From Squalus acanthias (lineage: Eukaryota): a stretch of 64,000 nt of DNA. Made by a program: the position numbers and the translations under genes. The notes beneath the pieces are model-generated. The model had not been told where the DNA came from. It saw only the letters and a list, made by a program, of their open reading frames with translations, and ran no database searches. The stretch covers positions 53,942,001 to 54,006,000 of the forward strand of contig CM059432.1 in the NCBI GenBank assembly GCA_030390025.1. Direction: 5' to 3'. This document shows, in pieces, positions 4,378-59,680 of the stretch; position 1 is the stretch's first letter; each line of letters opens with the position of its first letter.

Positions 4378-6384
4378 TAACAGGGTGTTTGCTTTATGGG
4401 GTTTCTCAGAGTGAAAAAGCTGAGAATTATGGAAAGAGCTGAGGTGGCTTATTTTGGGCATGGAGTTAAATGTTCAAAAAATAGCAAGATAACAGATCTG
4501 TGATACAATAACAGAATATTCTTTCTGAATTTAATGTCTGGAGAGCATAGCCTGCATTATATGACTGCAAGGTGGCAAGCTGACTCCATGCTAGTCCACC
4601 ACAGCCTTGGGTCCTAACTTAGGACTGTTTCATATTGCCTCCTTAATGTTCTCAGAAAAATCAGCCTTGATCCCTTTGTCCTCATTAGCTCTCACTCCAT
4701 CTCCAATCTTTGTTTCCTCTCCAAGGTTGTTGACTGTGTTTATCATCTCACAGAGCCATGACCATTTGTTTTCCTGTAGGATGCCCTCAGTAAGAACCTG
4801 CACCACTAAGGGCACATCTTGGGTGCTTACCTTGTGCAGGATACCAAAGTGCCCACTCTAGTTACTTAAAAATAAAATCTAAATCCTCCTTTTTGGGTTC
4901 CAGGCCATGGCCCAAACCTAGGTGGACTCCACTACACATCTTTCTTCTCAGAGTACTTGTGATCTGTCAGCTTCTGAAAGGCCAGGGAAACAGAAATGCT
5001 GATGTTCAGAGTTCCTGCCCATTAGCCCCACTTTCTTGTGTATTGATGGCCTTGTTAGGTAGGTGGAGGCTCTACACCTTGCAAGGCCATCAGGAATGCT
5101 GGGGCAATGCCAGTACCTGCCAGAAGTATGTCAGAAGATTAGAGTATTTTGAGCTGGCAAAGTTGTAGATATACAGGCTGAATATCATGCTGAATATCAA
5201 TGTTCTCCATGTCCTGGCTCTGACATCAGATGAGAGGACAAACATTGTAATGCTATTATTGTAGTTTTTTTCAAGAAATAACTGCAGTTAGTTATGGAGA
5301 AAGTCATTATATTTTGAAGAATAGACTTACTGAATCAGCTCAGAGGTTGTTTTCAGTCACTTTTATAAATCAACAGAAGTATTATCATCTATTTAAGTGA
5401 AATCTCCTCAAGGCAAGCTATAATCATAATCTTGAACGTGTGCGAGTTAGAGATGCTTCTATGTAGCTTAGTTATGATGTTCAATAAATATATAGACATA
5501 TTCTGATTTACAAATTGATTTTGAAGGCAAACAATTTAATGTGCTCAATTTGTAAAATGAAACAAATAACAACGATGGGAGTGGGTGGGAAGCACAGTAG
5601 TTACAAGCTTTACGCTGAAAGCAAATTTTAAAACAAATATTAGATTATAGGGAAATGGCATACTGCACCCTCTTTTGTTGAAACCAATAATACGAACCTG
5701 GTGCCCACCCAGTATTTACAGGTGATTTTAATTGGAAGCTGATTCACGCTGCATTTCTGTCAACATTAACCTGTGGCTTATTTCAATTTGAACTCTTATT
5801 TGAATTAGTCACTGTACCATGAGCAAACAATATGTGAACATCAGGTGACTTTGGGCATTTTCAAAGGCGATTCAAATTTATTGAACAATTTGATTTCTCC
5901 ATGATAAAATGCAAAATGAACTTAAATTATATCAGGGATTTTACCACATCAACACGTGGACTGACACTCGCCTTTAGTGCAAAAAAAATGACTGTTCCAT
6001 CGATATATGCCTACCTTTCCGTTCGTTATTGCACGCGTTGCTTGTGTTCATCATTCTAGAAAAATCTAAGAATATAGAAAATCTGTTTCTTGCTTAGAAA
6101 CTATGGGGATTATTTTGGGGTAAGGGTGAAAGCAGGCTCGAAGTGGGATCTGTGCTAATAAGACACGCCTGTTTAAAAGTCTGGTTTAAGTCCGCAATTT
6201 TGGAGTTAATTGCTGATTACCTTGATTTAAACATGTCTCGAGGTGCTAAACTGGAGACCTGCACATTTAGCACTCAAGCGCTGATTAGGAGCAATTTTCC
6301 TGGAGCGGTATATGTAGCCTCCATGCACGCACTTCCACTGAAGGTGTGCAGTGCGCTGGCTGACAGACAATGGCCCCTATCAGG

Positions 6385-7950
6385 ATGGCTCAAGGACTGA
6401 GGGAGAGAGCTCACAGGTTCTCAGAGGCGGCACTGGAGGTCCTGGTGGAGGAGGTACAGCGGAGGAGGGATGTCCTGTACCCACGGGGGGGAAGGAGGCC
6501 ACAGAGCCAACTAATACAGCGGATGTAAGAGGAGATCGTCAAGGAGATCACAGCCAGGAGCACTGTCCCCACGACATGGCTCCAGTGCCACAACATTTTT
6601 TATGATTTGACACGAGTGGTCAAGGTAAGATCCCATCTCACAAACATACTTCTCAATAACCGCACCACCACCAGCATCACAACCTCAACACACTGCATCC
6701 ACCATCTAACTGTGCAGTGACATTCACACAACCCACACTATTGCATCTTTCACAGGCAATACTCACACCTCAGACACATCTCATAGCTCTTCACCATGTG
6801 AGGCATCACACACACACAAAAACACTCATTCACAATCACCATCTTTCTCTTCCAGGACAAGATAGCACATAACAGGCACCAGCAGGACCGTACCGGGAGG
6901 GGGAAGCACGACTCCATGAGATCACTCCCCTTGAGGAGGTAGTGCTGGCAGTGATCGGGAGGGGAGCGGCAGACGCCGTGGTCTCGGGCAGAGCAGGGGA
7001 CACCACCTAGAGGTATGTGGTCACTCCAGCTTCCTTACATATCCACAATTATTCCTGCTTCCTAATCCCCCAAACCTGTCCTCACTCACAAGCTCAATAT
7101 GGTCTCATCACACACATCCTCCTATAGTAGCCACACAAGCTGCACCCTAACCCTTCTAGCTTTATCATTGCAGGCTCCCAGGAGCAAGATCCACCTCGCC
7201 TCCCGGAGGAACTGGAAGAGGAGGAAGAGCCGCCTCACCCTCCCCAGTGGAAGAGGTGGAGGAGGAGGAGGAGAGTGAGGAAGAAGGCACTGCGTCAATC
7301 ACTACCACTTTCGCAGGCACCAGCTCAGAGACTGGCACCATGCGTGGAGAGGCTGGCCAAATCCATCCAGCGACCTGTGGAGCCCAACATCATGCAGCAA
7401 CTGATGACTCAGGTCGCAGCTTCCACTGCAGTCACAGCAGCTTCCATGGAACATGAGAGTGCTGCAATGGATGCCCAAACAGCTTCCATTGCACTTCTAG
7501 CATCTTCCCTGGAACGAAAAAAGGCAGCTGCCATGGTGGCTCTGGACTCCTCGGTTGAAAGAGGCTTGCAGAGTGTCTCAGCTGCCCAGAGATCTGTCCT
7601 CCAGCAGATCACTGGGCTGGCTGAACAGACACCCCAAGGTAGTAGCGTGGGAATTATGGAGCAGGAACCTACTGGCCTCTCTCCGGATGGCAGCATTCCA
7701 TCCCCCGCCACTCCACCATTGTCCTTTCAGTTGCCTGTCGGCCAGGCGGCCCAGACTGCTCAAGCCTATGCTGCGATGGTGCAGTCTGAGGTGGGGCAAT
7801 CATGGCCCACAGCCTCTCGAAGGCATTACAGGAGGACATCTGACTGCCTTCTTCAGATTCTCAGCAGCCATCCACCACGCGTGCTACTGCCACTCGGGTT
7901 GCACTTCGTAGAAGCTCCAGAGTAGGCAAGAGCACTTATAGATAGCCACT
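6385..7950 (+). pseudogene. Harbinger Myb/SANT-like DNA-binding protein gene, 3 exons, disrupted
   Basis: Exon 1 MAQGLRERAHRFSEAALEVLVEEVQRRRDVLYP...QCHNIFYDLTRVVK|gtaag (~6624) with an internal stop; exon 2 from ~6856 (DKIAHNRHQQDRTG); exon 3 from ~7173. Homologous to 28182-30103. Confidence 0.8.
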
Positions 7951-10474: not shown

Positions 10475-10903
10475 TGAAGCCTGCAGAAAGAAGCAAAGGT
10501 AAGGAATCTTTTCCCAACACTTTACACTCACCTCCCATACTTACCTGTCCACACTTGCACCCATCACTCACCTCTACAGCTGACATTTCGACCCCTCTCA
10601 CCCCCACAGACCCACTGCTCGCCTCGCTGACCCTGGCGAGGTTCGCAGCCATCGGGAAGCCCGCACTTGCAGGCGTAAAATAGGGAAAAGCATCAAAAAC
10701 TGCCTGTTAACAGGCAGTTAATTGGCTCTAATCCCCTTCTTGCCTCGAGGAGACGGGTCCCTGCGCGACTCGGCGACCCGCCTCCCGGGAAGATGGCATG
10801 GAGACGGGTTGGGAGCGGGGTCAGTTCCCGCTCCCAGTTTCTGCCATTTTCCCGGCAGTCCCGCCTCCATACCCGCCTCCCCAGGGTTGGGAAAATTCCC
10901 CCC
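10475..10903. mobile_element. Partial copy of the MITE family of 44666-45498 (reverse orientation, hairpin core absent)
   Basis: Alignable with 20960-21387; ends gaaaattcccccc. Confidence 0.75.
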
Positions 10904-11404
10904 GATCTTTCATTTCTCTTCTAATTACAGGTGTACAACAGTTACAACATTCTCCCCCATGTTATTATTCATAAATTCAGGTATTGGACCCAATGTCATG
11001 ATTACTTGTACTTTTGCTGCTTTGTTGATATTTACCAGATGTTTTCACACCTGTTGTTGGAGCCTTTCTTAGAGCACAGGAAAAGAAGATGTTAGCACAA
11101 GGCAATGCCAGGTGTGTGGCTGACTCATGACTAAATGGTCCACACATCGTGGGTGAATTTCCATGGATGTTCTCCAGTTTGTCCACCGTAACTTCAACGG
11201 AAGAGCTGCAGAAACTGGAAAGATGGCATCAACATCGTTGACGCCATCTTTCCGGGGTCCCCGCTGCTCTTCCACTGAGGTCTGCAAAAATTCATCCCCA
11301 TAGTTTTTGACCAATGTTGATAGCCCATCATTCAGACAGAGAATTATGAATGGTGTATGGTAGGTATGGGGAGGGAATCTGCAGGAGATAGACTAATAAA
11401 GGGG

Positions 11405-11645
11405 TGTGGCGGATCGCCACCTAAACGGGCATTATCCACTTTTCTGTCCGTGGACAAACATCGAGCACCTTCCCTTTAAGGCACCTTACCTTTAAGGCAG
11501 GAGTGGGCGGGGCCTCAGGATTTTTCCAGAGAATTCTGGGAGCAGTCTGTTCAGCCATTTTTGTACCATGCAGTTGTATTAAAAAAGTCTCTTGTTTTCC
11601 ACACATGGATTCAGCCTTAATTCGTGTTTCGCGGCAGCCTCAACA
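11405..11645 (+). repeat. 5' LTR
   Basis: tgtggcgg...cctcaaca; direct repeat of 15509-15749 with 5 substitutions counted by eye. Confidence 0.95.
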
Positions 11646-15506: not shown

Positions 15507-15508
15507 TG

Positions 15509-15749
15509 TGTGGCGGATCGCCACCTAAACGGGCACAATCCACTTTTCCGTCCGTGGACAAACATCAAGCACCTTCCCTTTAAGGCACCTTACCTTTAAG
15601 GCAGGAGTGGGCGGGGCCGCAGGATTTTTCCAGAGAATTCTGGGAGCAGTCTGTTCAGCCATTTTTGTACCATGCAGTTGTATTAAAAAAGTCTCTTGTT
15701 TTCCACACATGGATTCAGCCTTAATTCGTGTTTCGCGGCAGCCTCAACA
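15509..15749 (+). repeat. 3' LTR
   Basis: Direct repeat of 11405-11645, followed by TSD GGGG. Confidence 0.95.
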
Positions 15750-20468: not shown

Positions 20469-20629
20469 AAACTGGGGAGAAAGTGAGGACTTCTAAAACG
20501 GGAATTGGGTGAAAATGGGAACTCAGTGCTGAGTTGGAGAGAAACTGTGGGTACGTAGTGCAGAAATTGTGTTTTTTATCAAACTGAAATGTAAGCTTAG
20601 GGGATGATTTTGCCAATGGGGAACTTCCA

Positions 20630-21387
20630 TCAACTTCTGGCCAACCCACGCTATTTTCCCTTGATTGACCTTGTTAAGCCCGCCCAGTGGGCTTAGCAGG
20701 CCAATCAAGGGAAAGCCGGTTACAGAGAACGTCAACGTATGACGTTTCATCTGTCAAAAATTTTTGACAGATGAATTGTCATCGTTTGACAGCTCTGTGA
20801 AGCTGTCAAACAGTGACATTCTCTGTAGTTGGATGAGGTCTTTCAAGACCTCATCAAACCTTTCTTTTGCAGAAAGGAGATGGTTGTTGCATTGGAGAAT
20901 GCAACGGCTATCTGTCATCTCTACAGCAGAGGTGTGAGACTCTCCGCATACCCACCAACTGAAGCCTGCAGGAAGAAACAAAGGTAAGTAAACTTTTTCT
21001 AGCACTTTGCACTTACCTCAGATACTCACCTCTCCACAGTTGCACCCATCACTTACCTTCACAGCACACTTTTGGACCCCTCCGACCCCCGCAGACCCTC
21101 TACTCGCTTCGGTGACCCTGGCGGGTTTTGGAGCCTTTGGGAAGCCCGCACTTATGTGGACAAAAAGGGGATAATGCTATTTTCTGCCTGTTAACTACCT
21201 GTTAACAGGCAGTTAAGTGGCTTTAATCCCTTCCCGCCTCCAAGGAGACGGGACCCGGTGCGGGACAGCTACTCGCCTCCTGGCAAGATGGCATGGAGGC
21301 GGGTTGGGCACCCGCCCCCAAATTCTGCCATTTTCCCAGCAGTCCCGCCTCCAAACCCGCCTCCCCAGGGCTGGCAAAATCGCCCCC
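20630..21387. mobile_element. MITE of the 44666-45498 family, reverse orientation, one end missing
   Basis: Ends caaaatcgccccc; near-identical in reverse complement to 44666-45420. Confidence 0.9.
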
Positions 21388-22632: not shown

Positions 22633-22818
22633 GGGGGTGGACTTGGAGATGGGCAGGATGCAAAACGGGTGCTATCACATCAGTCACCTGTTATGTGCTC
22701 CGCCCGATATTCAGTTCCATTGACTTCAATAGAACTGAATATCGGGTGTATCGTATAACAGTCGGCAAATGCAATTCCGCTTGTTTTACATCCCCGTCCA
22801 TGTCCAATTTCACCCCCC
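22633..22818. mobile_element. Short palindromic MITE (186 bp)
   Basis: ~40-bp imperfect TIR gggggtggacttggagatggg.../...gtccatgtccaatttcaccccc, TGT on both flanks, central palindrome cccgatattcagttc...gaactgaatatcggg. Confidence 0.8.
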
Positions 22819-25800: not shown

Positions 25801-28181
25801 CCACATATATAGTTGGAAACCTTGATTTGTCTACTTGGAAGATTTGCAACCAGTACATTATTAGTCTCAAATCAGTGAGGACCAAGAAAAAAAATGAACC
25901 ATCACTCGAGAGCAGCATCCTGATATCGAACTCTAAAAACTGTCTCAGAAAAATATTTTGTGTGATTTCTAAATTGAACTTCTGCTTTGAACATAATAGC
26001 ATGGTTATGTTTTGCAGCCCTGTGTGGTAAAATAAATAGGTCTTTTGCTTTGAAAACCTTAGGGAAAGATCCAAACCTGATTGCGGCCCACCAAGTACCT
26101 TAAACTGATTAGCAACTCTTGGATCCAGCCCAATCTGGCAGGGGTATGGACACCAGGATGTAGCATTAGAAAGGAGGAACAAAGTGCACAAAGGATTAGG
26201 AGAGACAGATAGCACTAGAGTACGAAATAGTAAGGTATTCGGTGGGGTCAGACTAAGAGAGAATGCAAGAAGGCCTAAGATAGGTTTACAGTGCATGTGT
26301 GTAAACGCACTTAGTGTGGTAAATAAGATTGGTGAGCTGCAGGCGTAAATAGCCACATGGGAATATGATGTCGTGGCGATAACGGAGACCTGGCTCAAAA
26401 AAGGACAGGATTGGATACTAAATATTCCTGGATATAGGGTGTTCAGGAAAGATAGGGAAGGAAGGAAAGAAAGGAGGTAGGGTGGCTGTATTGGTTAAGG
26501 AGAATGTTACAGTGCTGGAGAGAGAGGATGTCCCGGAGGGGTCAGGACAGAATCTATCTGGTTAGAGTTAAGAAATAATAGAGGTGCCATTACACAACTA
26601 GGTGTATTCTATAGGCTACCAACTAGTGGGAAAGATATAGAGGAGTAAATTTGCAGGGAAATTACAGAGAGCTGCAAGAACTATAGAGTAGTGATAATAG
26701 GGGACTTTAATAATCCTAATATAGACTGGGATAGTAATAGTGTAAAGGGTAGAGAGGGGGAAGAATTTCTGAAGTGTGTTCAGGAGAACTTTCTTGATTA
26801 GTGCGTTTCCAACCCATCGAGGAAGGAGGCATTGCTGGATCTGGTTCTGGGGAATGAGGTGGGTCAAGTGAAGCAAGTGTCAGTAAGGGAACATTTAAAA
26901 AATAGTGATCATAGTATCATAAGGTTTAGATTATCTATGGAAAAGGACAGGGAGTAATCTAGAGTAAAAATACTTAATTGGAAGAAGGCAAATTTCAGTG
27001 GGTTGAGAATGGATCTGACCTGGGTAAATTGGAATCAAAGATTGGCAGGCAAAACTTTATTCGAACAATGGGCTGCCTTTAAAGAGGAGATGGTTCGGGT
27101 AAAGTCGAGGTACATTCCCACGAGGGGGAAAGGTAGGGCAACCAAAACCAGAGCTCCCTGGATGACGAAAGAGATAGAGACTAAGATGAAGCAGAAAAAG
27201 GGGGCGTATGACAAATGTCAGGTTGAGAATACAAGTGAGAATCAGGCTGAATATAGAAAGTTCAGAGGGGAAGTGAAAAAGAAGATAAGAGGGGCAAAGA
27301 GAGAGTATCAGAATAGATTGGCAGCTAACATAAAAGGGAATTCAAAAGTCTTCTACAGGTAAATAAATAGTAAACAGGTAGTAAGAGGAGGGGTGGGGCC
27401 AATTAGGGACCAAAAAGGAGACCTACGCATGGAGGCAGAGGGCATGGCTGAGGTACTAAATGAGTACTTTGCATCTGTCTTCACCAAGGAAGAAGATGCT
27501 GCCAAACTCATAGTAAAAGAGGAGGTAATGGAGATACTGGATGAGATAAAAATTGATAAAGAGGAGGTACTAGAAAGGCTGTCTGTACTTAAAGTTGCTA
27601 AGTCACCAGGACCGGCTGGGATGCATCCTAGGATGCTGAGGGAAGTTAAGGAGGAAATTGCTGAGGTACTGGCCATAATCTTCCAATCCTCCTTGGATAC
27701 GGGGGTGGTGCCAGAGGACTGGAGCATTGCAAATGTTACACCTGTAAGATTTGGATCACAGGCCACACACACATTACCCAAAGGGTCTTAGGATTTGTAA
27801 GGCTTTTTATTAAAGAGCTAGGGGGAAAAATTAAGTATTGACCCGTTTGGGGCGCCATTATCGGGCGTGCGCAAAGTTTAGCGCCTGGCGCTGATTATCG
27901 CCTCCGACTGCAAACTTGACTTTTATCGCCCCTGGAGGTGATTGGAGCACTAAATCAGGTGCTACACACCTGTCTTAAGGCGCAAAGGCTGAGGAGCGAT
28001 GCGCTAACTCAGAGCGTGGGCGCAGCGCAGGTGCTGTCAGTTAGCAATGGAACACAGACACACTGGCGCCGGACAGTTCTTAAAGGGGAGGGTCGATCTT
28101 GCTCTCCAGCCACACCCTGCTCATTGGAGCCTTGAATCTCGGCCTGGAGAGACCTGTGCCTAAATCTTCCAGCCAAGGACT

Positions 28182-30103
28182 ATAGAGAGGGTGAGAGAAC
28201 GAGCTCAGCGCTTCAGCAAGCGGGCCTTGGATGCTCTGGTTGGCGCGGTGGAGCGCAGAAGATCTATACTCTTCCCTGAGAGTGGCAGGAGGCCTTTGCC
28301 GCGCGAGTACAGAAGAGTGTGGAGGGAGGTGGCTCAGAGCGTCTCCTCCAGGAGCATGGTGCCCAGGACCCATACTCAATGTCGAAAAAAGTTCAACGAC
28401 CTCACTCGGGTCGTCAGGGTGAGTGGCTTTTTTTCAAACCTCTCCATCCCTCCATCTCAACCTCACTCTGTGGCCAGAGGGTCTTAAAACCCCAATGCCC
28501 AACACTCATTCAACACCTATGGCCCTCTCATGAAACACACACGCACATTCCACACTTTGCATACAGTAAGGGCTATTCACCGATGGGAGACACATCAGGC
28601 AAGACCATGGCTGCGTACAGTAAGGGCTATTCACCTATGGGAGGCACATCAGGCAAGACCATGGCTGCATACAGTAAGGGCTATTCACCTATGGGAGGCA
28701 CATCAGGCAAGACAATGGCTGCATACAGTAAGGGCTATTCACCCATGGGAGGCACGTCAGGCAAGACCATGGCTGTATATTTACTCAGACGCCATCCTTT
28801 TTCTTGCAGGCCAAGCTATCTCATAATAGGAGACAGCAGCAACGGACAGGCGGAGGGCGGCCTCAGATGCAACCCCTCAGCGATCTTGAGGCGCACGTCC
28901 ACAGGATTGTGGCAAGCCAGGTGATCAGTCCTGTCACCCCTGGAGAGGCCGACCCCGTTCGGGACAGCAATGGTAAGGTGATCACCTTTTTCTCCTCTCT
29001 CCTTCCACTTGTCCCTCACAACACCAGCCTTTGACACTTTCAATCCAACTTACTAAATCGCTGCACTCATTCCTCCTTTACTGCTCCCCTGTCCTCATGC
29101 TAAAGCCACTCTTGTACCTCCCTGCATTCAGATGGTGATTCACCAGCTGAGGAGACGGGCCCTCAAGCTGCCAGTGGGAGTGAAGCTGCAGGCTAGGAGG
29201 AAGATGAAGCCAGAGCATCAGTGCCACCCTCTCCCGAGGAAGCCCATGCCCACACTGGGAACACATCTTCCCTGGAGGGGAGCAGGGGGGAAGGGTCTGA
29301 TGAGGGTGAAGTTCCAGGACCTAGCGGGCTGCAGCAACGCGATGGGGGTAGGGAAGCTCGGGAGCCTTCTCCCCGGAGGGAGAGTAGGCCAGCGAGTCCT
29401 GCTGCACTGGACGCAGAGGAGGAGCGGCTCATCGCTGAAATGAACACCCAGGCGGTGGACATGCAAACTGAGCTCATGGGTGCAGTGGGAAGAGTACCCG
29501 AATGCATTGAATCACTGGCAAGGAGTGTGGAGCACTTCGCTGTAGCACAGGCGGATGCCACGCTAAAGCTTTCTGCTGCAATTCCGTCACTGGCTGCCAT
29601 GACCCCATCTCAGACTGCTTTCATGCAGACTCAGATTGAGGTCACGCAAGCACTGGCTGCTGCCATTCTCGCTGGTTCGGACACATTTCCCCGGGGCTCT
29701 CACAGCAGCAGGCCAGCAATCTGTGCTCCAGCAGATTGCTTCGGATGCTGAAGTGCTGCCCCGTGGGAGTGCCAGTGTGTCGGTCGAGCAGGGAGTTGCT
29801 GTCCTCTCTCAAGATGACAGCATTCCTGCTGCCACCACTGTCACTTCTCCATTGCACTTGCCACCGCCTGTAGGCCAGACTGCTGCCGCCCATGCAGAGT
29901 TGGTGCAGTCTGCAGCCAGGCTCTCCAGGCCCAGAGCTGGTCGAGGCCGTCCTTCAAGGGCAGCTGCAGTCTCAGGTTCTGACAATCAGCAGCCTTCCAC
30001 CAGCCTTGCTGCAGCCACTGGGGCCCCATTACGGAGGAGAAGTAGGGTGGGAAGGGGGGAAGTGCGCAAGGGAAGAAGATCACCCTCGAAGGGCAAAAAG
30101 TAG
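28182..30103 (+). pseudogene. Harbinger Myb/SANT DNA-binding gene; exons 28182-28418, 28810-28972, 29132-30103
   Basis: RERAQRFSKRALDALV...WREVAQSVSS...RTHTQCRKKFNDL; canonical GT-AG introns in phases 0 and 1. Probable ATG>ATA start, TAG at 29194, frameshift near 29695. Confidence 0.85.
28558..28777. repeat. 54-bp tandem repeat, 4 copies, inside Myb intron 1
   Basis: Unit tgcatacagtaagggctattcacc(g/t/c)atgggagrcacrtcaggcaagaccatggc. Confidence 0.95.
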
Positions 30104-30412
30104 GAGGTGTGACAAAATGTTTGTCAATTTTTTATTAAAGGCCGAGGTTCGTGGTCAAACATTTGTTTAGTGTTTTGGACATTATCTCCAGGTTGTGAGA
30201 ACCAGTTATGTTAATGACTTTTTTTGTGTTTCTTTCTATTAGTTTGTCATGAAGAAATGACACACACACAGTTTCTAAAATAAATAATTTTTTGTATTCA
30301 AAATGTACATGTTTGGTCTTTGGAGTCATTGTTGCCTTGGCCGGCTTAGGGGTTGTGGGTTGGTTTCATTCATGTTGTTCTCAATGGCAGAAGCCATTTC
30401 CTCAGTAGGGGC

Positions 30413-31573
30413 CTAGAAGCGGCTTGCTATCAGCCGTTGATGGACGGCCCTTCCAGTTTCAAGATTGTGGGCCTCCCTCCCGCCTTGGTGCTGCTGCTGA
30501 TCATCCTCCTCCTCTTCCTCCTCCTCTTCCTCCTCCTCCTCCGGTGGTGCTCCAAGGCCTGGTGGCATTGACTGGGTCCTGAGATTTACCAGGTTATGCA
30601 GCATGCAGCACACAACTGTGAAGAGGGAGACTCGCTCAGGCGAGTACTGCAGGGCTCCTCCTGGGTGGTCCAGGCAGCGGAACCGTTGCTTGAGCACGCC
30701 GATTGTGTGCTCAACGATGTTCCTGTTGGCGAGATGACTCTCGTTGTACCGCAGCTCAGCAGGGGTGTTGGGGGTACGGAGCAGTGTCATCAGCCAGGTG
30801 CAGAGTGGATAACCCTTGTCCCTGAGAAGCCAACCACTTGGGTGATGCGGTGCCTGGAAAAGTCTGCCACAGTAGTCTAGCGCAGGATGAATGCATCGTG
30901 GCTGCTGCCAGGATAGCGGGCATTGACAGCGAGTATCAGCTGTCTGTGGTCACAGACCAACTGGACGTTTAGGGAGTGGAATCCCTTTTGGTTGCGGAAA
31001 TCCTCTGCATTCTCACGCGGTGCACGCAATGCCACATGCGTGCAGTCAATGGCACCCTGCACCATGGGGAAGCCCGCTATCCTCGCAAAGCCCAATGCGC
31101 GTTCATGCTGTTTGGCCCGGGTCATCGGGAAAGAGATGTACTGTCGTCTCCTTTTATAGACGGCATTTGTGACCTGACGGATGCAGCGATGGACAGCGAA
31201 CTGGGAGATATTGGCGATGTCCCCAGTAGGTGCTTGAAAGGAGCCGGTGGCATAAAAGTTCAGAGCCACTGTGACCTTCACTGCCACCGACAGAGACGTC
31301 CTGGTCCTCAGTTGAGGCTGCAGATCTGGCTGCAGCAGGTGGCAGAGCTCAGTGACCACCTCCTTGCTGAAGCGCAGCCTTCACAAACACTGCTCCTCAG
31401 ACATATTAATGTAGGAGAATTGTTCCTGCAATACCCTGGGAGGGTAAGGTCTCCTGTACAGAGGCCTGTTGGCCCTCCTCCATCTGGCCATGATTGCCAC
31501 TCTCTCTCTGCATCTCTGTGGCCTCCGAATCTGCCGGCACAGGACGACACCCCCAATCAGTGCAGCCCCCAAA
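30413..31573 (-). pseudogene. Harbinger (HARBI1-like) DDE transposase with stops and frameshifts
   Basis: [45 protein letters not shown]...[24 protein letters not shown]. Confidence 0.93.
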
Positions 31574-33443
31574 GTCTCTTGGCAATCAAAGTAATGAAGG
31601 TCAAAAACAAAAGTACCTGCAAAGTGATGCTCAGTAGCCAAAACTACTTCACACAGCGTTGACTCTATATAGAAGTCTCTCCTTCTCTCTCTCAGAATCT
31701 CTCTCTCTGTCAGAACGAGTGGTGCAAAAATGTCTACCACAGAAAAAGTCAGGAAGAGGCCGCATTTAAATAGCGCCCCCCCACCCTCACCCCCGCCAGC
31801 CCCACAGCGACTGGGAAATGTTCCAGTCTACCTGTCGTTGCTTGCGCCAGGTGGACAGGAGGGGGGCGCCACTCAATATCCGCTCCGGGGCGCCACAAGG
31901 GCGTTGCACGCTTGAATGACGTCAAGATCTGCGTGCGCAGGAGATTGGGGCGGTATTGTTTAGCGCCGCCGCAAAATGTCTGGTCAATTTCGCGAGCGGC
32001 ACAGATATCGCCGCGCCCAGGCGCTAGTTGCTTTGTCCCCAATTAGCTCCGTCTTAAGGTGCTAACGGGAGGTGCAAACCAACTGAATTTTTCCCCCCTA
32101 CAGTTTAAAGTATAATCAGATATTACATGTGGTTAAGATAAGTATAATAGACATACAACCCGTGTCATTAGAGAGTGATCTACGACCCCCGAAGCGGAAT
32201 GCCATGAGCGGAAAAGGGTTTAAGGATAAACCCAGCAACTACAGGCCAGTCAGTTTAACCTCAGTAATGGGGAAGCTTTTAGAAATGATAATCAGGGACA
32301 AAGTTAACAGTACTTGGACGAGTGTGGACTAATTAAGGAAAGCCAGCACGGATTTGTTAAAGGCAAATTGTGTTTAACTAACTTGATCGAGTTTTTTGAT
32401 GAGGTTACAGAGAGGGTTGATGAGGGCAATGCGGTTGATGTGGTGCACATGGACATCCAAAAGGCGTTTGATAAAATGCCACATAATCAGCTTGTCAGCA
32501 AAGTTGAAGCCCATGGAATAAAATTGGCTAGGTGACAGGAAATAGAGAGTAGTGGTGAACGGTTGTTTTTCGGACTGGAGGAAGTTATACAGTGGTGTTC
32601 CCCAGGGGTCGGTACTAGGACCACTACTTTTCTTGATATATATTAATGACTTGGACTTGGGTGTACAGGGCACAATTTCAAAATTTGCAGATGACACAAA
32701 ACTTGGAAGTATAGTGAACAGTGAGGAGGATAGTGATAGACTTCAAGAGGACATAGACAGGCTGGTGAAATGGGCAGACACGTGGCAGATGAAATTTAAT
32801 GCAGAAAAGTGCCAAGTGATACATTTTGGCAGGAAGAACGAGGGGAGGCATTATAAACTAAAGGGTACAATCCTAAAGGGGGTGCATGAACAGGGAAACC
32901 TGGGGGTATATGTGCACAAATCATTGAAGGTGGCTGGGCAGCTTGAGAAAGCAGTTAATAAAGCATACAGGATCCTGGGCTTCATAAATAGAGGCATAGA
33001 ATACAAAAGCAAGGAAGTTATGATGAACCTTTATAAAACACTGGTTCAGCCTCAGCTGGAGTATTGTGTCCAACTTTAGGAAGGATGTGAAACTGAGCGG
33101 CGGACCTGCGAGAGGCACAGAGTCAGCAAGAGGAGGATAAAAAGAGTGTGGAGAGGAGGCCTGGGACCGGAGCTGAGCAGCGGACCTGCGAGAGGCACAG
33201 AGTCAGCGAGAGGAGAGAGAGAAGTAAAAAGTAATCGAAGTGTGACGTCACCAGAAAGCAGGTAAGTGATTGGTAGGTGAGTATTTTTCTCTTTCTCGCT
33301 TTTTTCAAAACTTAATTTTTGTGGTTTATAGTTTCTAGGGTCTCTGTTGTGTACTGGGGAGTGCTGAGTATATCATTTAATTGTAGTGTAATTAGAGGTA
33401 TTGATTTGATTTAATTTAATTTGAATTAATTAAAGGGTATGTC

Positions 33444-43149: not shown

Positions 43150-44430
43150 CAGAGGAGGAGGAGAATCAGCAAAAAACTCATTTAGATGCAAGAGCAGTAA
43201 GGCAGCACTAAAGGAGGAGAGCACCAACTCAGAGATACCCAGCTGAGCAGATTTGTAGATTCTCATGGACATTCCTGGACCTTAGTGAGGCTCTGGGAGG
43301 TCATCAGAGCATTATGTCACCAGCTGAGATAGAACCTGAAACCATGTCTCAAGCCTCCATCACACTGTCTGTGCCAGTAAAGATCATCACAGCATTCAAT
43401 TTCTACACCACTGGAGGGCTGTAGGGGCCACTAGGGACATTGCATGGATATGGCAATTGACAGTGCATAGATGTATCCACCAGGTTACAGATGCCTTGTA
43501 TGCTAGGACAAATCAATACATCATGCTCTCCATAGATGCCAGGGAGAAGTAAGCTTGTGCCCTTGGCTTTTACCAACTTATTGGTTTGATCAGGATACAA
43601 GATGTAATTGTTGGGACTTTTATCGGATGAGACGTTAAACCAAGGCCCAGTCTGCTCTCTCAGGTGGACGTAAAAGATCCCATGGCACTATTTCGAAAAA
43701 GAGCAGGGGAGTCCTGGCCAATATTTATCCCTCAATCAAATTCTCTAAAACAGATGATCTGGTCATTATCACATTGCTGTTTGTGGGAGCTTGCTGTGTG
43801 CAGATTGGCTGCCATGTTTCCTACATTACAACAGTGACTACACTTCAAAAACTACTTAATTAGCTGTAAAGCGCTTTGGGACGTCCGGTGGTCATGGAAG
43901 GCACTATATAAATGCAAGTATTTCTTTTTTTATATGTGGGGCCACAGAGAGGAGTGCCCCTTACATGAATTGAAAGGGATATTACTCCATTAATGTCCTA
44001 CTAGTGTGTGATCATTAGCACAATATCCATGGTCTGTTCCAACTTTCTACTTCTCCCAGCTTCTCTGCCACTTTGCTCGTTGCTTTGAGGGTTGTCAGAC
44101 CCCATGGCACAATTTATAGGGCACATGGCAGTGGCTATTATGCTCCTTGTTACCTCTTCTTGGAGACTATCCATAAAGGCTGCCACATTATTGCCAGGGG
44201 CCTGTATTGCAACAGTCTGTGTATTCATGAGGAAATACTGGTAACAAGACCTCAGCTGTGAGAGACTGCACAGCAGAAGGCCCTGGAGCTGCCACTCACT
44301 CCAACGATGCCTGCGTGCTTTCAATACTGTGCATCAACACCTCACACGTGCGTGATATGGTCTCCTGCTCCACACATATTGCCATGGTACAGAAGCTGCT
44401 AAGTGCATCACCCAATGATTCCAACAGTCT
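43150..44430 (+). pseudogene. Highly degenerate Harbinger transposase interrupted by a SINE
   Basis: LSVPVKIITAFNFYTTG (~43365-43415) and KGYYSINVLLVCDH (~43974-44015). Confidence 0.65.
43620..43930 (+). mobile_element. 5'-truncated SINE (same family as 15915-17050)
   Basis: cggatgagacgttaaacc...ctatataaatgcaag. Confidence 0.8.
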
Positions 44431-44665
44431 ATTACGCACTAGAAGCATTCTCAGGTGCAGCTGCTAGTGAAAGCTCCCTTCTTCCTTCACCTTCCCTTCC
44501 CGTTGCAGTGCTCCTACTATACCCTCTAGTTATAACCTCCTGAGTGAATGGAACTGGGCTGCAGCATGCCAAGTCTTGGAATTGTGACAGGGTTCCTGAT
44601 GAGGTGCTTCATGCAGGTTCTGAAGGGCCTGACCTCTGGTTTCTCTTCTATTCCTCTGAATCATA

Positions 44666-45498
44666 GGGGGCGATTTTGCCAGCCCTGGGGAGGCGGGTAT
44701 GGAGGCGGGACTGGCAGGAAAATGGCAGAATTTGGGGGCGGGTGCCCAACCCGCCTCCATGCCATCTTCCTAGGAGGCCGGTAGCCGTCCCGCGCCGGGT
44801 CCCGTCTCCTTGGAGGCGGGAAGGGATTAAAGCCTATTAACTGCCTGTTAACAGGTAGTTAACAGGCAGAAAATAGGATTATCCCCTTTTTGCCCTCACA
44901 AGTGCGGGCTTCCCGAAGGCTCCAAAACCCGCCAGCTCAGCGAGGCGAGTACTGGGTCTGCGGGGGTCGGGGGGTGCAAAAGTGTGGTGTGAAGGTAAGT
45001 GATGGCTGCAAGAGTGGAGAGGTGAGTATCTGAGGTAAGTGCAAAGTGTTAGTAAAAGTGTACTTACCTTTGTTTCTTCCTGCAGACTTCAGTCAGTTTG
45101 TATGCGGAGAGTCTCGGACCTCCGTGTTGCAGATGAGAGATGGCTGTTGCATTCTCAGATGCAACAACCATCTCATTTCTGTAAAAGAAAGAAGGTTGAT
45201 GAAGTCTTGAATTCAAGACCTCATCAAACTACAGAGAATGTCACTGTTTGACAGCTTCACAGAGCTGTCAAACGATGACAATTCATCTGTCAAAAATTTT
45301 TGGACAGATGAAACGTCATACGTTGACGTTCTCTGCAACCGGCTTTCCCTTAATTGGCCTGCTAAGCCCGCTGGGCGGCTTAACAAGGTCAATCAAGGTA
45401 AAATAGCATGGGTTGGCCACAAATCGATGGAGGCGGGACTAAAACCCGACAAGCAGCAGTCCCACCTCCAACACGCCCCCGTTAACAAAATCGCCCCC
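44666..45498. mobile_element. Complete Harbinger-type MITE (833 bp) with hairpin-rich core
   Basis: Perfect 13-bp TIR gggggcgattttg/caaaatcgccccc, TSD ATA. Confidence 0.93.
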
Positions 45499-45501
45499 AT
45501 A

Positions 45502-55545: not shown

Positions 55546-56005
55546 TACCTGTGCATTCTGATCTCCTCACTGTACATCTCATTCTGGAGTACTGGTTAAT
55601 TGTTTGAATAGTGTAAAAATGACTGCCAATGCAGGTACTGATTTCTGCCTGGTGAAGTTTTCAAATTCATAAGCCACAGAGGAAACCCAGATGCACCTGT
55701 CAGTTTAATTGACAGAAGATATTCATGAACAGAAATGGATGAACTTTAATCGTTAGTTCAAAAAGAGTAAAATATACCTACAAACACCTGCTCAATAAGG
55801 GTTCTGGTTTGCCTATGTGCCTCGCTGTATCTGCTGGGGTGTGATAGTTATGTAAAGGCACCATTATCTATGCTCGTATTATGTAGCCCATACCTCCAAG
55901 GACTCAACCATCCATCGTTCCTATCCTTCAAAAAAGTTCTAAAACTTTTGATTACCTCAAAATAAAATCATCATGCATCCCCCAAAAAGCTGGCATTGTG
56001 GTAGA

Positions 56006-56440
56006 TTATTTTCTGGTGGGGGTCATAGGCCATTTGCACAGTAATGGAATAACAAACCTTTCTTTTAGGGATGCGAAAGATTGCTGTTTAGGCAGTTGAA
56101 TAGCTACATAGGTACTGTCAACAATACCGTGAAACTTGGAGAGGCCACCAATTTGGAAAACTTTAGCAGTCTCCGCTGCTGCTGCTGAAGTAGGTAGATG
56201 GCAAACCCAGGGCTTCCTCCTTACTGTAGTGATGCACGAAGAAGCAACTGTTTGCTGTGATGTCCTCTGTAGGCAGTTAGAGACGGTGGTGATCTGGACT
56301 GCCATTAGTACTGCAGTGCAGATGGTTGAGTGTCCTTCATGAAACAGGTGACACATCTTGGTCACAGCTTCCCTGCTGAACCTGTGCCCGAATCTCTTCA
56401 TGTGTTGTTCCTCTGTCATACAAGGTAGCTGGCTATTTCA
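56006..56440 (-). pseudogene. Degenerate Harbinger transposase fragment
   Basis: MTEEQH...FSREAVTKMCHL, AVQIT, GIVDSTYVAI. Confidence 0.65.
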
Positions 56441-58921: not shown

Positions 58922-59680
58922 ATGGGAGCTGTATATAAGGTCTCACCTTGGTCCTCAGAATCAGACCAAGATGAGCCCCACCAGCAGCAGCAGCAACCAC
59001 AACAACAGCTTTTTCCTCAATGACCTGATGCTTCACAGGAGAGAGGGGGGCACCACAGGGCTACAGTGCGCTGGAGGGGATACCCCCAACACAGGGTATA
59101 CAGGCAGAGGATGAGCTTCCTCAACATGACTGAACAGCAGTGCTTCAGGAGGCTCAGGTTATCGCGCCAGGTCATCGCAGACATTTGTAGCTTGCTGGAA
59201 CAAGACCTGCTACCTAGAGTACCTGATGGACATGCCTTACCAGTGGCTGTCAAAGTTACCAGCACCCTCAACTTCTTCACCTCAGGCTCCTTCCAGGGAT
59301 CTTCAGCAGACATTTGTGGGATCTCGCAGTCGGCCGCCCACAGATGCATCACCCAGGTGACTGATGCCATGTTTCACAAGGCAGCCAATTATGTCAACTT
59401 TGCCACTGTTGAGGGCAGTGTTAATGAGCGGGCACTCGGCTTTGCGGCCCTCGCTGACTTTCCACGGTGCAGGGCGTCATCGACTGCACACATGTGGCCA
59501 TGAAGGCACCCCCACCTCACCCAGGAGTGTTTGTGAACTGCAAGGGCTTCCACTCCCTCAATGTGCAGCTCGTTTGCAACCATAAGAAGATGATAATGCA
59601 TGTGTGCACTAGATTCCCTGGCAGCTATCATGACTCTTCCGTGCTGCGCCAGTCCATCCTCCCTCAGCTCTTCACAACTC
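58922..59680 (+). pseudogene. Harbinger transposase, 3'-truncated; element probably starts ~58255
   Basis: [57 protein letters not shown]. Confidence 0.88.

Follow-up and report, generated by a model that had tools for sequence, protein, structure and literature searches.

A row of covarying hairpins at the centre of a Harbinger-type MITE of Squalus acanthias, derived from two joined transposon ends

An 833-bp PIF/Harbinger MITE in the genome of Squalus acanthias holds at its centre a row of hairpins whose arms have changed together between subfamilies. The element occupies 44666–45498 of the window, by which we mean the whole 64,000-nucleotide stretch that was analyzed, and it has 12-bp TIRs and ATA duplicated on both sides. 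Its sequence indicates that it is a gene-less MITE formed by joining two ends of a longer Harbinger-type transposon. The hairpins are likely to be DNA-level palindromes, which would have been perfected by arm-to-arm copying and kept as favouring mobilisation of the copies that carry them. The features of this copy, and of two relatives in the window, are listed here by window position.

44663–44665: left target duplication, ATA; the element is inserted inside another repeat
44666–44677, plus strand: left TIR, GGGGGCGATTTT
44678–44990, plus strand: left (transposase-side) subterminal region, homologous to the transposase-side end of family E2; small hairpins; putative promoter role
44689, 44701, 44750 (inverted) and 44812: GGAGGCGGG motifs in the left subterminal region
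44995, 45022 and 45035 (span 44995–45040), plus strand: three candidate splice-donor-like sites
45063–45085: dual-use site; on the plus strand resembling a branch point, pyrimidine tract and acceptor, on the minus strand a donor with its exon edge at 45068, used in one contig
45105–45124: H0, a small variable hairpin absent from the list in the initial annotation
45137–45174 (outer stem to 45129–45182): H1, derived from the part of the transposase-side 5′ leader that immediately precedes the transposase start region
45183–45194: purine-rich hinge, where an internal deletion brought the two ends together
45195–45229, minus strand: H2, derived from approximately the first 15 codons of the Myb/SANT gene
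45232–45238 and 45329–45335: putative closing-stem arms of a cloverleaf
45246–45273 (extended stem 45239–45280), minus strand: H3, inherited; in families E and E2 it immediately precedes the Myb/SANT start
45282–45312, minus strand: H4, a loopless A/T-centred palindrome; E and E2 have a longer spacer with a TATA-like motif instead
45313–45329: H5, inverted TGACG half-sites that we take to be CRE-like; inherited
45348–45398: H6, inherited, 89–100% conserved; inverted boxes around a core, presumably CCAAT-like boxes around a GC-box-like core
45487–45498, minus strand: right TIR
45499–45501: right target duplication, ATA
20600–21387, minus strand: second full copy, with a subfamily B core, 91% identical to the copy at 44666–45498
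10475–10903, minus strand: left half of a subfamily C copy, ending before the hairpin core, 77% identical

The TIRs, the 3-bp duplication and the copy number bear out the initial annotation's view that the element is a MITE. PHIS MITEs have short TIRs beginning with G or A, a 3-bp duplication, no coding capacity, uniform size and many copies, all of which were found here, and the element type agrees with that superfamily as defined in the available text of PMC4482050 and PMC9179366. The longest ATG frame is 89 aa, which leaves the element without coding capacity. There are thousands of copies in at least six subfamilies. Four queries of the 3.7-Gb genome yielded 2125, 452, 1779 and 1895 first-look candidates, and 40 were scored for each query. 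Three copies were found among loci totalling 476 kb that had been picked by unrelated queries, which suggests, very roughly, some tens of thousands of copies genome-wide. After eight of 109 profile matches had been left out for missing anchors, the remaining 101 cores fell into subfamilies A (30), B (27), C (9) and D (31), with four single copies forming F and G; between-group identity is 63–95%. Complete copies are mostly about 780–870 bp long. The TIRs occur as four 12-bp variants, all beginning with GGG, and both were detected in 80 of the 101 copies. The left and right TIRs of subfamilies B and C are often of different variants, which suggests recombination between subfamilies.

The two halves of the MITE have separate relatives. 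Families E and E2, each about 1.75 kb long and bounded by TIRs of its own, have the same cassette immediately in front of a Myb/SANT frame at one of their ends. Positions 532–842 of the MITE profile match this Myb-side end of E2 in 30 of 30 loci (E down to 1e-48), and the stretch from the left TIR (position 4) to about 524 matches the opposite, transposase-side end of E2 in most loci (E down to 2e-34). Since the halves match opposite ends of E2, the MITE consists of two such ends brought together; the hinge that separates H1 from H2 is the junction, and only a 4-nt GGAG is common to its two sides. Read along the minus strand, the order H6, H5, inner arm of H4, H3, H2 follows that of the promoter region, leader and first codons on the Myb side. 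The H2 stretch behind H3 aligned with the start of the Myb frame better than any of 2000 shuffles in each of three comparisons. For the region from the acceptor to H1, the match to the transposase side of family E was equalled in 0 of 500 shuffles for subfamily C and was weaker for B and F (10–33 of 500); no alignment of this region to the transposase-side leader was found for subfamilies A, D and G. A motif resembling the donor-like sites at 44995–45040 is found in the 5′ leader of two autonomous Harbingers (L097 and L109). In family E, a motif that we take to be TATA-like precedes a presumably initiator-like site by approximately 31 bases, just ahead of H3; by homology, minus-strand transcription of the MITE would start near 45288. 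The initial annotation had regarded the core as cargo and, as one reading, as a carried structured ncRNA. Homology to the two ends of longer Harbinger-type elements extends over the entire core; the sequence traces to transposon ends, and neither description is supported.

The long relatives that are homologous to the MITE carry a Myb/SANT remnant. In one of two copies scanned, the frame of an E-type relative matched PF13873 (Myb_DNA-bind_5) with E 3e-10. E and E2 are non-autonomous, with no transposase domain match. Both are abundant (7346 and 3034 first-look candidates); the Myb/SANT frame is largely open, its start codon is mostly missing, and the transposase is present as a decayed 5′ end only. 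The genome is also rich in intact two-gene Harbingers of 4.2–4.7 kb, in which the transposase and Myb/SANT frames converge and the TIRs are similar and start with GGG. Among 20 autonomous loci from the 150 best transposase matches, no intact parent with the ends of the MITE was found. The Harbinger load of the genome is very large, with 63,885 first-look candidates for PF13359 and many open frames of 385–391 aa. Broken Harbinger transposase and Myb/SANT remnants of other families lie in the window itself (28083–31643, 59075–59673, 55829–56419, 43326–43627 and 6313–6627). No Harbinger was found in elephant shark according to the available text of PMC9179366, which calls for other species to be examined.

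All stem arms quoted in the initial annotation were found where it placed them, and the core folds far beyond chance. As RNA, the 273-base core reaches −128.9 kcal/mol on the plus strand (z −13.4) and −136.8 kcal/mol on the minus strand (z −12.9); as DNA it reaches −72.8 kcal/mol (z −11.8). None of 200 shuffles was as stable in any of the three cases. The minimum-energy fold is a three-way junction on the plus strand and a cloverleaf on the minus strand, because short TGACA/TGACG words pair in two registers. The three-hairpin cloverleaf first proposed is one of two equally good folds, the best on one strand, but its closing stem is absent from the consensus folds of both strands across subfamilies and from subfamily D. 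The same annotation described the second copy as having a shorter but fully paired H2; this H2 is indeed shorter, but a private 4-nt tip deletion and one mismatch interrupt the pairing.

Covariation was assessed on 11 of the 101 cores, namely the window copy, the six nearest their own consensus and the four single copies. Changes on both sides were seen in 17 of the 87 named pairs compared with 6.9 in shuffles, a count reached in none of 500, although the structure was drawn from the tested sequences, which favours covariation, and kin sequences can beat a shuffle control without structure. Slid controls gave 4–8 pairs. H1 is the hairpin with the most compensatory changes (9 of its 21 pairs, and 9 of the 17); H2 was out of register for C and D in the alignment and is thus undercounted. 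The signal emerges only once subfamilies C, D, F and G are included. The stems are kept with compatible changes between subfamilies, as had been claimed from the two full window copies, but those two alone show almost no compensation. For a repeat, covariation alone is not proof of an RNA gene.

Between subfamily consensuses, stems diverge about half as fast as unpaired sites or less (B–C, 14 of 182 stem versus 24 of 91 unpaired sites; B–D, 41 of 185 versus 36 of 92; B–G2, 24 of 185 versus 25 of 92). When B is compared with the distant subfamilies C, D and G, identity is 88–95% in H3 and H6 and 67–93% in H4; H1 and H2 have 45–84% identity yet still pair. Across subfamilies H3 is 88–100% conserved, and H4 is weak in subfamily G. 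Inserted copies behave differently from the consensuses. In 88 copies of A, B and D, which are the best matches to the query and so are biased to low divergence and young age, private non-CpG changes amount to 0.83% of stem and 1.10% of unpaired sites (P 0.027). Stem changes in these copies are compensated in 3 of 139 cases, and most break pairs. Subfamily C copies picked by the left arm show deletion or truncation of the core in 7 of 11 and of the left arm in 5 of 11. The subfamily representatives, in contrast, have a core of 339–342 nt in eight of eight cases. Near-neutral decay of inserted copies, together with full-length cores in the representatives, implies that any constraint acts on the transposing lineage and not on resting copies. 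Against a strict need, seven related copies have in common the loss of 13 nt from the inner stem of H6, a change that at least one amplified line has therefore survived. For a coreless copy, no second full-length match was found among 40 scored.

Strand-neutral hairpin scores were compared between E2 and subfamily C, with 150 substitution-only simulations of random drift. H3 (30.5 in E2 versus 36.5 in C), H5 (12 versus 10) and H6 (27.5 versus 33) already score well in the relative and, by sequence homology, are shown as inherited. H1 (15 versus 34), H2 (10 versus 17.5) and H4 (10.5 versus 24.5) pair, on the same comparison, far better than the leader, codons and spacer to which they are homologous; the scores in C were reached in 0, 3 and 0 of the 150 simulations, respectively. 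The H2 score rises to 27–34.5 in A, B, D and G2 (34.5 in A), and in the subfamily A consensus H2 is a loopless perfect palindrome. Because H2 is coding sequence in the relatives, the change appears to have run from the relatives to the MITE.

The pairing itself favors the level of DNA. Across four consensuses, 386 of 439 stem columns are Watson–Crick, with 19 wobble pairs when read on the minus and 18 when read on the plus strand, and single-sequence energies show no consistent strand preference. The absence of wobble strand bias, the loopless H2 and H4, and the strand-neutral energies together indicate DNA symmetry. The cruciform array named among the readings in the initial annotation is upheld as a candidate. 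We put at about even the case that template switching from arm to arm created the palindromes and that they were retained since copies with a symmetric, promoter-active centre transposed better. Template switching, probably in gap repair or replication, would be the source of the paired changes. H3, H4 and H6 would act as symmetric protein-binding or promoter sites, because their sequence is kept, and H1 and H2 would act by shape, because only their pairing is kept. The surviving Myb-side promoter may open chromatin or supercoil the DNA such that the A/T-centred palindromes extrude, and extrusion may make the ends more available to the transposase–Myb complex supplied by autonomous Harbingers.

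The new hairpins could instead be a by-product of mutation. In that account, which we consider a serious but rather doubtful contender, the origin is the same, repeated template switching perfects quasi-palindromes and carries changes between arms, and selection acts only on the promoter or binding sequence of H3, H5 and H6. The loopless perfect palindromes of H2 and H4 and the lack of wobble bias are as expected from such copying; H4 resembles an inverted copy in place of the spacer, and subfamily D has, upstream of H1, a second occurrence of 11 nt from the H2 3′ arm. H1 and H2 also drift as fast as the unpaired parts (45–63% identity for B versus D, and for B versus C in the case of H2). Hairpins extend beyond the core, with the first 300 bases of the element folding at z about −6, and the ends of autonomous Harbingers are hairpin-rich as well. 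Correction alone, however, should erase loops and mismatches, whereas A, B, C and F retain the basal loop of H1 and most subfamilies retain mismatches in H6. A full-length core is also found in all sampled subfamilies despite frequent hairpin loss in copies. The window has two other long hairpins, at 11217–11253 (17-bp arms) and 22703–22746 (21-bp arms). The first, which has a TIR-like sequence close by at about 11290, probably belongs to another MITE. Direct repeats of 242 bp at 11404–11645 and 15508–15749, 98% identical and 4.1 kb apart around GC-rich open frames, probably belong to a retroelement.

The family is transcribed. Two raw RNA runs, matched to the species by label only, gave 3144 and 9680 reads that are mostly 90–95% alike and so describe the family as a whole. 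In run X18, first mates at 45047–45052 number about 2059 on the plus and 111 on the minus strand (approximately 18:1), and the bias fades over H2–H4 and reverses over H6. Divergent transcription from the core would be expected to leave such a pattern in a library of the usual kind (strand sense uncalibrated on a known gene). A contig from run X1, presumed to be RNA, leaves the element exactly at the minus-strand donor at 45068 and enters repeat sequence, and its continuation follows a pyrimidine tract and AG in nine of nine genomic copies found. A second contig, from run X2 and also presumed to be RNA, ends at the same base. The old Myb-side promoter is probably still active; if so, the family distributes large numbers of portable first exons across the genome.

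The structure could instead work as RNA. The Myb-side promoter, possibly opposed by a transposase-side one, would make a hairpin-rich leader that yields small RNAs, stops transcription or binds the proteins of the element, and so tunes silencing or activity of the family. The splice at 45068 and the strand bias of X18 are in keeping with such a role, as is the RNAalifold consensus across subfamilies, which is stronger on the minus strand (−92.9 versus −77.1 kcal/mol) and in which H1 keeps G–U pairs. The minus-preferring consensus fold and the 18:1 run fit an RNA role as well, and they count against a reading at the level of DNA only. On the other hand, run X17 is biased by only 1.7:1, most reads run across the donor, there are no sharp RNA ends at the core, and the samples are tied to the species only by label. 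A G–U strand bias was considered as an RNA signature; it was seen in H1 by RNAalifold and was gone in the strand-neutral count. We know of no route by which a cut-and-paste element could gain in cis from its own RNA. A role at the level of RNA seems to us unlikely. The initial annotation had held that absent covariation, stems decaying at the neutral rate and absent transcripts would point to template-switch palindromes. Covariation is present, inserted copies nonetheless decay close to neutrally, and family transcripts exist but have no discrete ends; the outcome is mixed, and template switching remains part of the story.

Capture of a host structured RNA, either an H/ACA scaRNA (H1–hinge–H2–ACA, plus strand) or a tRNA-like cloverleaf, is already largely refuted and, despite the ANANNA hinge and the ACA downstream of H2 that A, B and F possess and a best Rfam match to SCARNA15 (RF00426; 45127–45236, 24.4 bits against a gathering score of 65 bits, E 0.049), is highly improbable: none of the 23 Rfam matches is above threshold or a tRNA family, ARAGORN found no tRNA gene, D and one G copy lack both the hinge (H) box and the ACA, C lacks the box, the H2 of A is without a pocket, the genome's own SCARNA15 candidate is no closer to H1–H2 than shuffles (110–148 of 300), and the core sequence traces to transposon genes. 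That candidate (L138:1501–1635, 50 bits, below the Rfam cut-off) is a probable host SCARNA15 gene. The miRNA matches in Rfam all lie far below threshold. A conserved small peptide from H1 was rejected, its ATG being missing in D and one G copy. A scan for bacterial-type promoters and terminators, not relevant here, was at chance level.

Across 80 copies, the target preference is a 19-bp palindrome of approximately GA-N-W-C-(WWW)-G-W-N-TC. The strict PIF/Harbinger target TWA, as given in the available text of PMC4482050, does not hold for this family: TTA or TAA occurs in 6 of 41 identical duplications, the rest being mostly other A/T-rich triplets. With respect to the NuwaII target C|TNA|G, C precedes in 57 of 80 and G follows in 47 of 80 copies, and the triplet is mostly not TNA. 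Identical 3-bp duplications were found in 5 of 23 copies of A, 9 of 20 of B, 2 of 7 of C and 20 of 28 of the young D, in copies 1–4% from their consensus. Empty paralogous sites hold one triplet. Such a site was available for 33 of 79 copies tested, and 21 of the 33 have unlike triplets; approximately 14 of these have an empty site that matches one side with contiguous flanks, and seven are ambiguous, some from TIR boundary calls. The mismatched duplications fit an element that carries 3-nt overhangs from its donor site, which on our reading is implied by the cleavage model in the available text of PMC4561436. End conversion between copies is an alternative. Nature may here have left evidence of the way in which Harbinger transposases cut DNA.

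No general explanation is known to us for the tens of thousands of copies that some MITEs attain, and we know of no rule for how the interior of mPing matters. Here, a graded series from the long relatives through the weakly paired G to the fully paired A–D presents coding and leader DNA that became hairpins, so that the hypothesis of selection on shape is testable. The boldest form of the preferred reading would have the promoter, 5′ leaders and first codons of the parent remodelled by the MITE lineage as a cruciform array under selection for shape, which the still-active internal promoter extrudes and which serves as a cis enhancer of transposition. This would be the first MITE interior selected for structure over sequence with its stepwise origin from coding DNA on record, and we advance it as a tentative possibility.

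Our searches of the open-access literature yielded no account of an array of covarying hairpins that goes back to gene starts; subscription journals and Repbase/Dfam lay outside the scope of the search. The closest known systems each share part of the picture, and we compare them from the available text of the papers cited. Rice mPing and Tourist-like MITEs (PMC9921582, PMC4561436) likewise have short G-starting TIRs, a 3-bp duplication, no coding capacity and high copy number, with related elements that carry a DDE transposase and a Myb/SANT gene. Internal sequences change the transposition rate of mPing, itself a Harbinger MITE (PMC9921582), so that internal sequence can affect mobility there too. 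The target differs, being a 19-bp palindrome with a loose WWW centre here and TWA there, and the available text of PMC9921582 gives no role for secondary structure in an interior that here is a row of covarying hairpins. The NuwaI and NuwaII groups of PHIS (PMC4482050, available text) share TIRs that begin with GG(G), C before and G after the 3-bp duplication, and two-gene autonomous elements, which are approximately 4.2–4.7 kb in the S. acanthias genome; the present family differs in its triplet, which fits neither CWG nor TNA in most copies. In Xenopus tropicalis, Harbinger-N12A_XT (PMC12676858), likened here by description, is a vertebrate Harbinger MITE with approximately 3,500 copies, palindromic repeats in its interior and a centre that lies in open chromatin, but it is 342 bp long, and the available text gives no covariation analysis or derivation from gene starts. 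The Gnome, Elf and Goblin MITEs derived from Ozma (PMC3814204) also arose by internal deletion of a longer element and keep parental interior; they are Tc1/mariner elements, with no hairpin array described in the available text and with 6–8 bp of microhomology at the junction, compared with the 4-nt GGAG here. Finally, the coral CMITEs (PMC2872659) have an interior that is more conserved between families than the TIRs and is proposed, in the available text, to aid transposition. They are piggyBac-related, and the origin of their interior is unknown, whereas that of the S. acanthias element can be traced.
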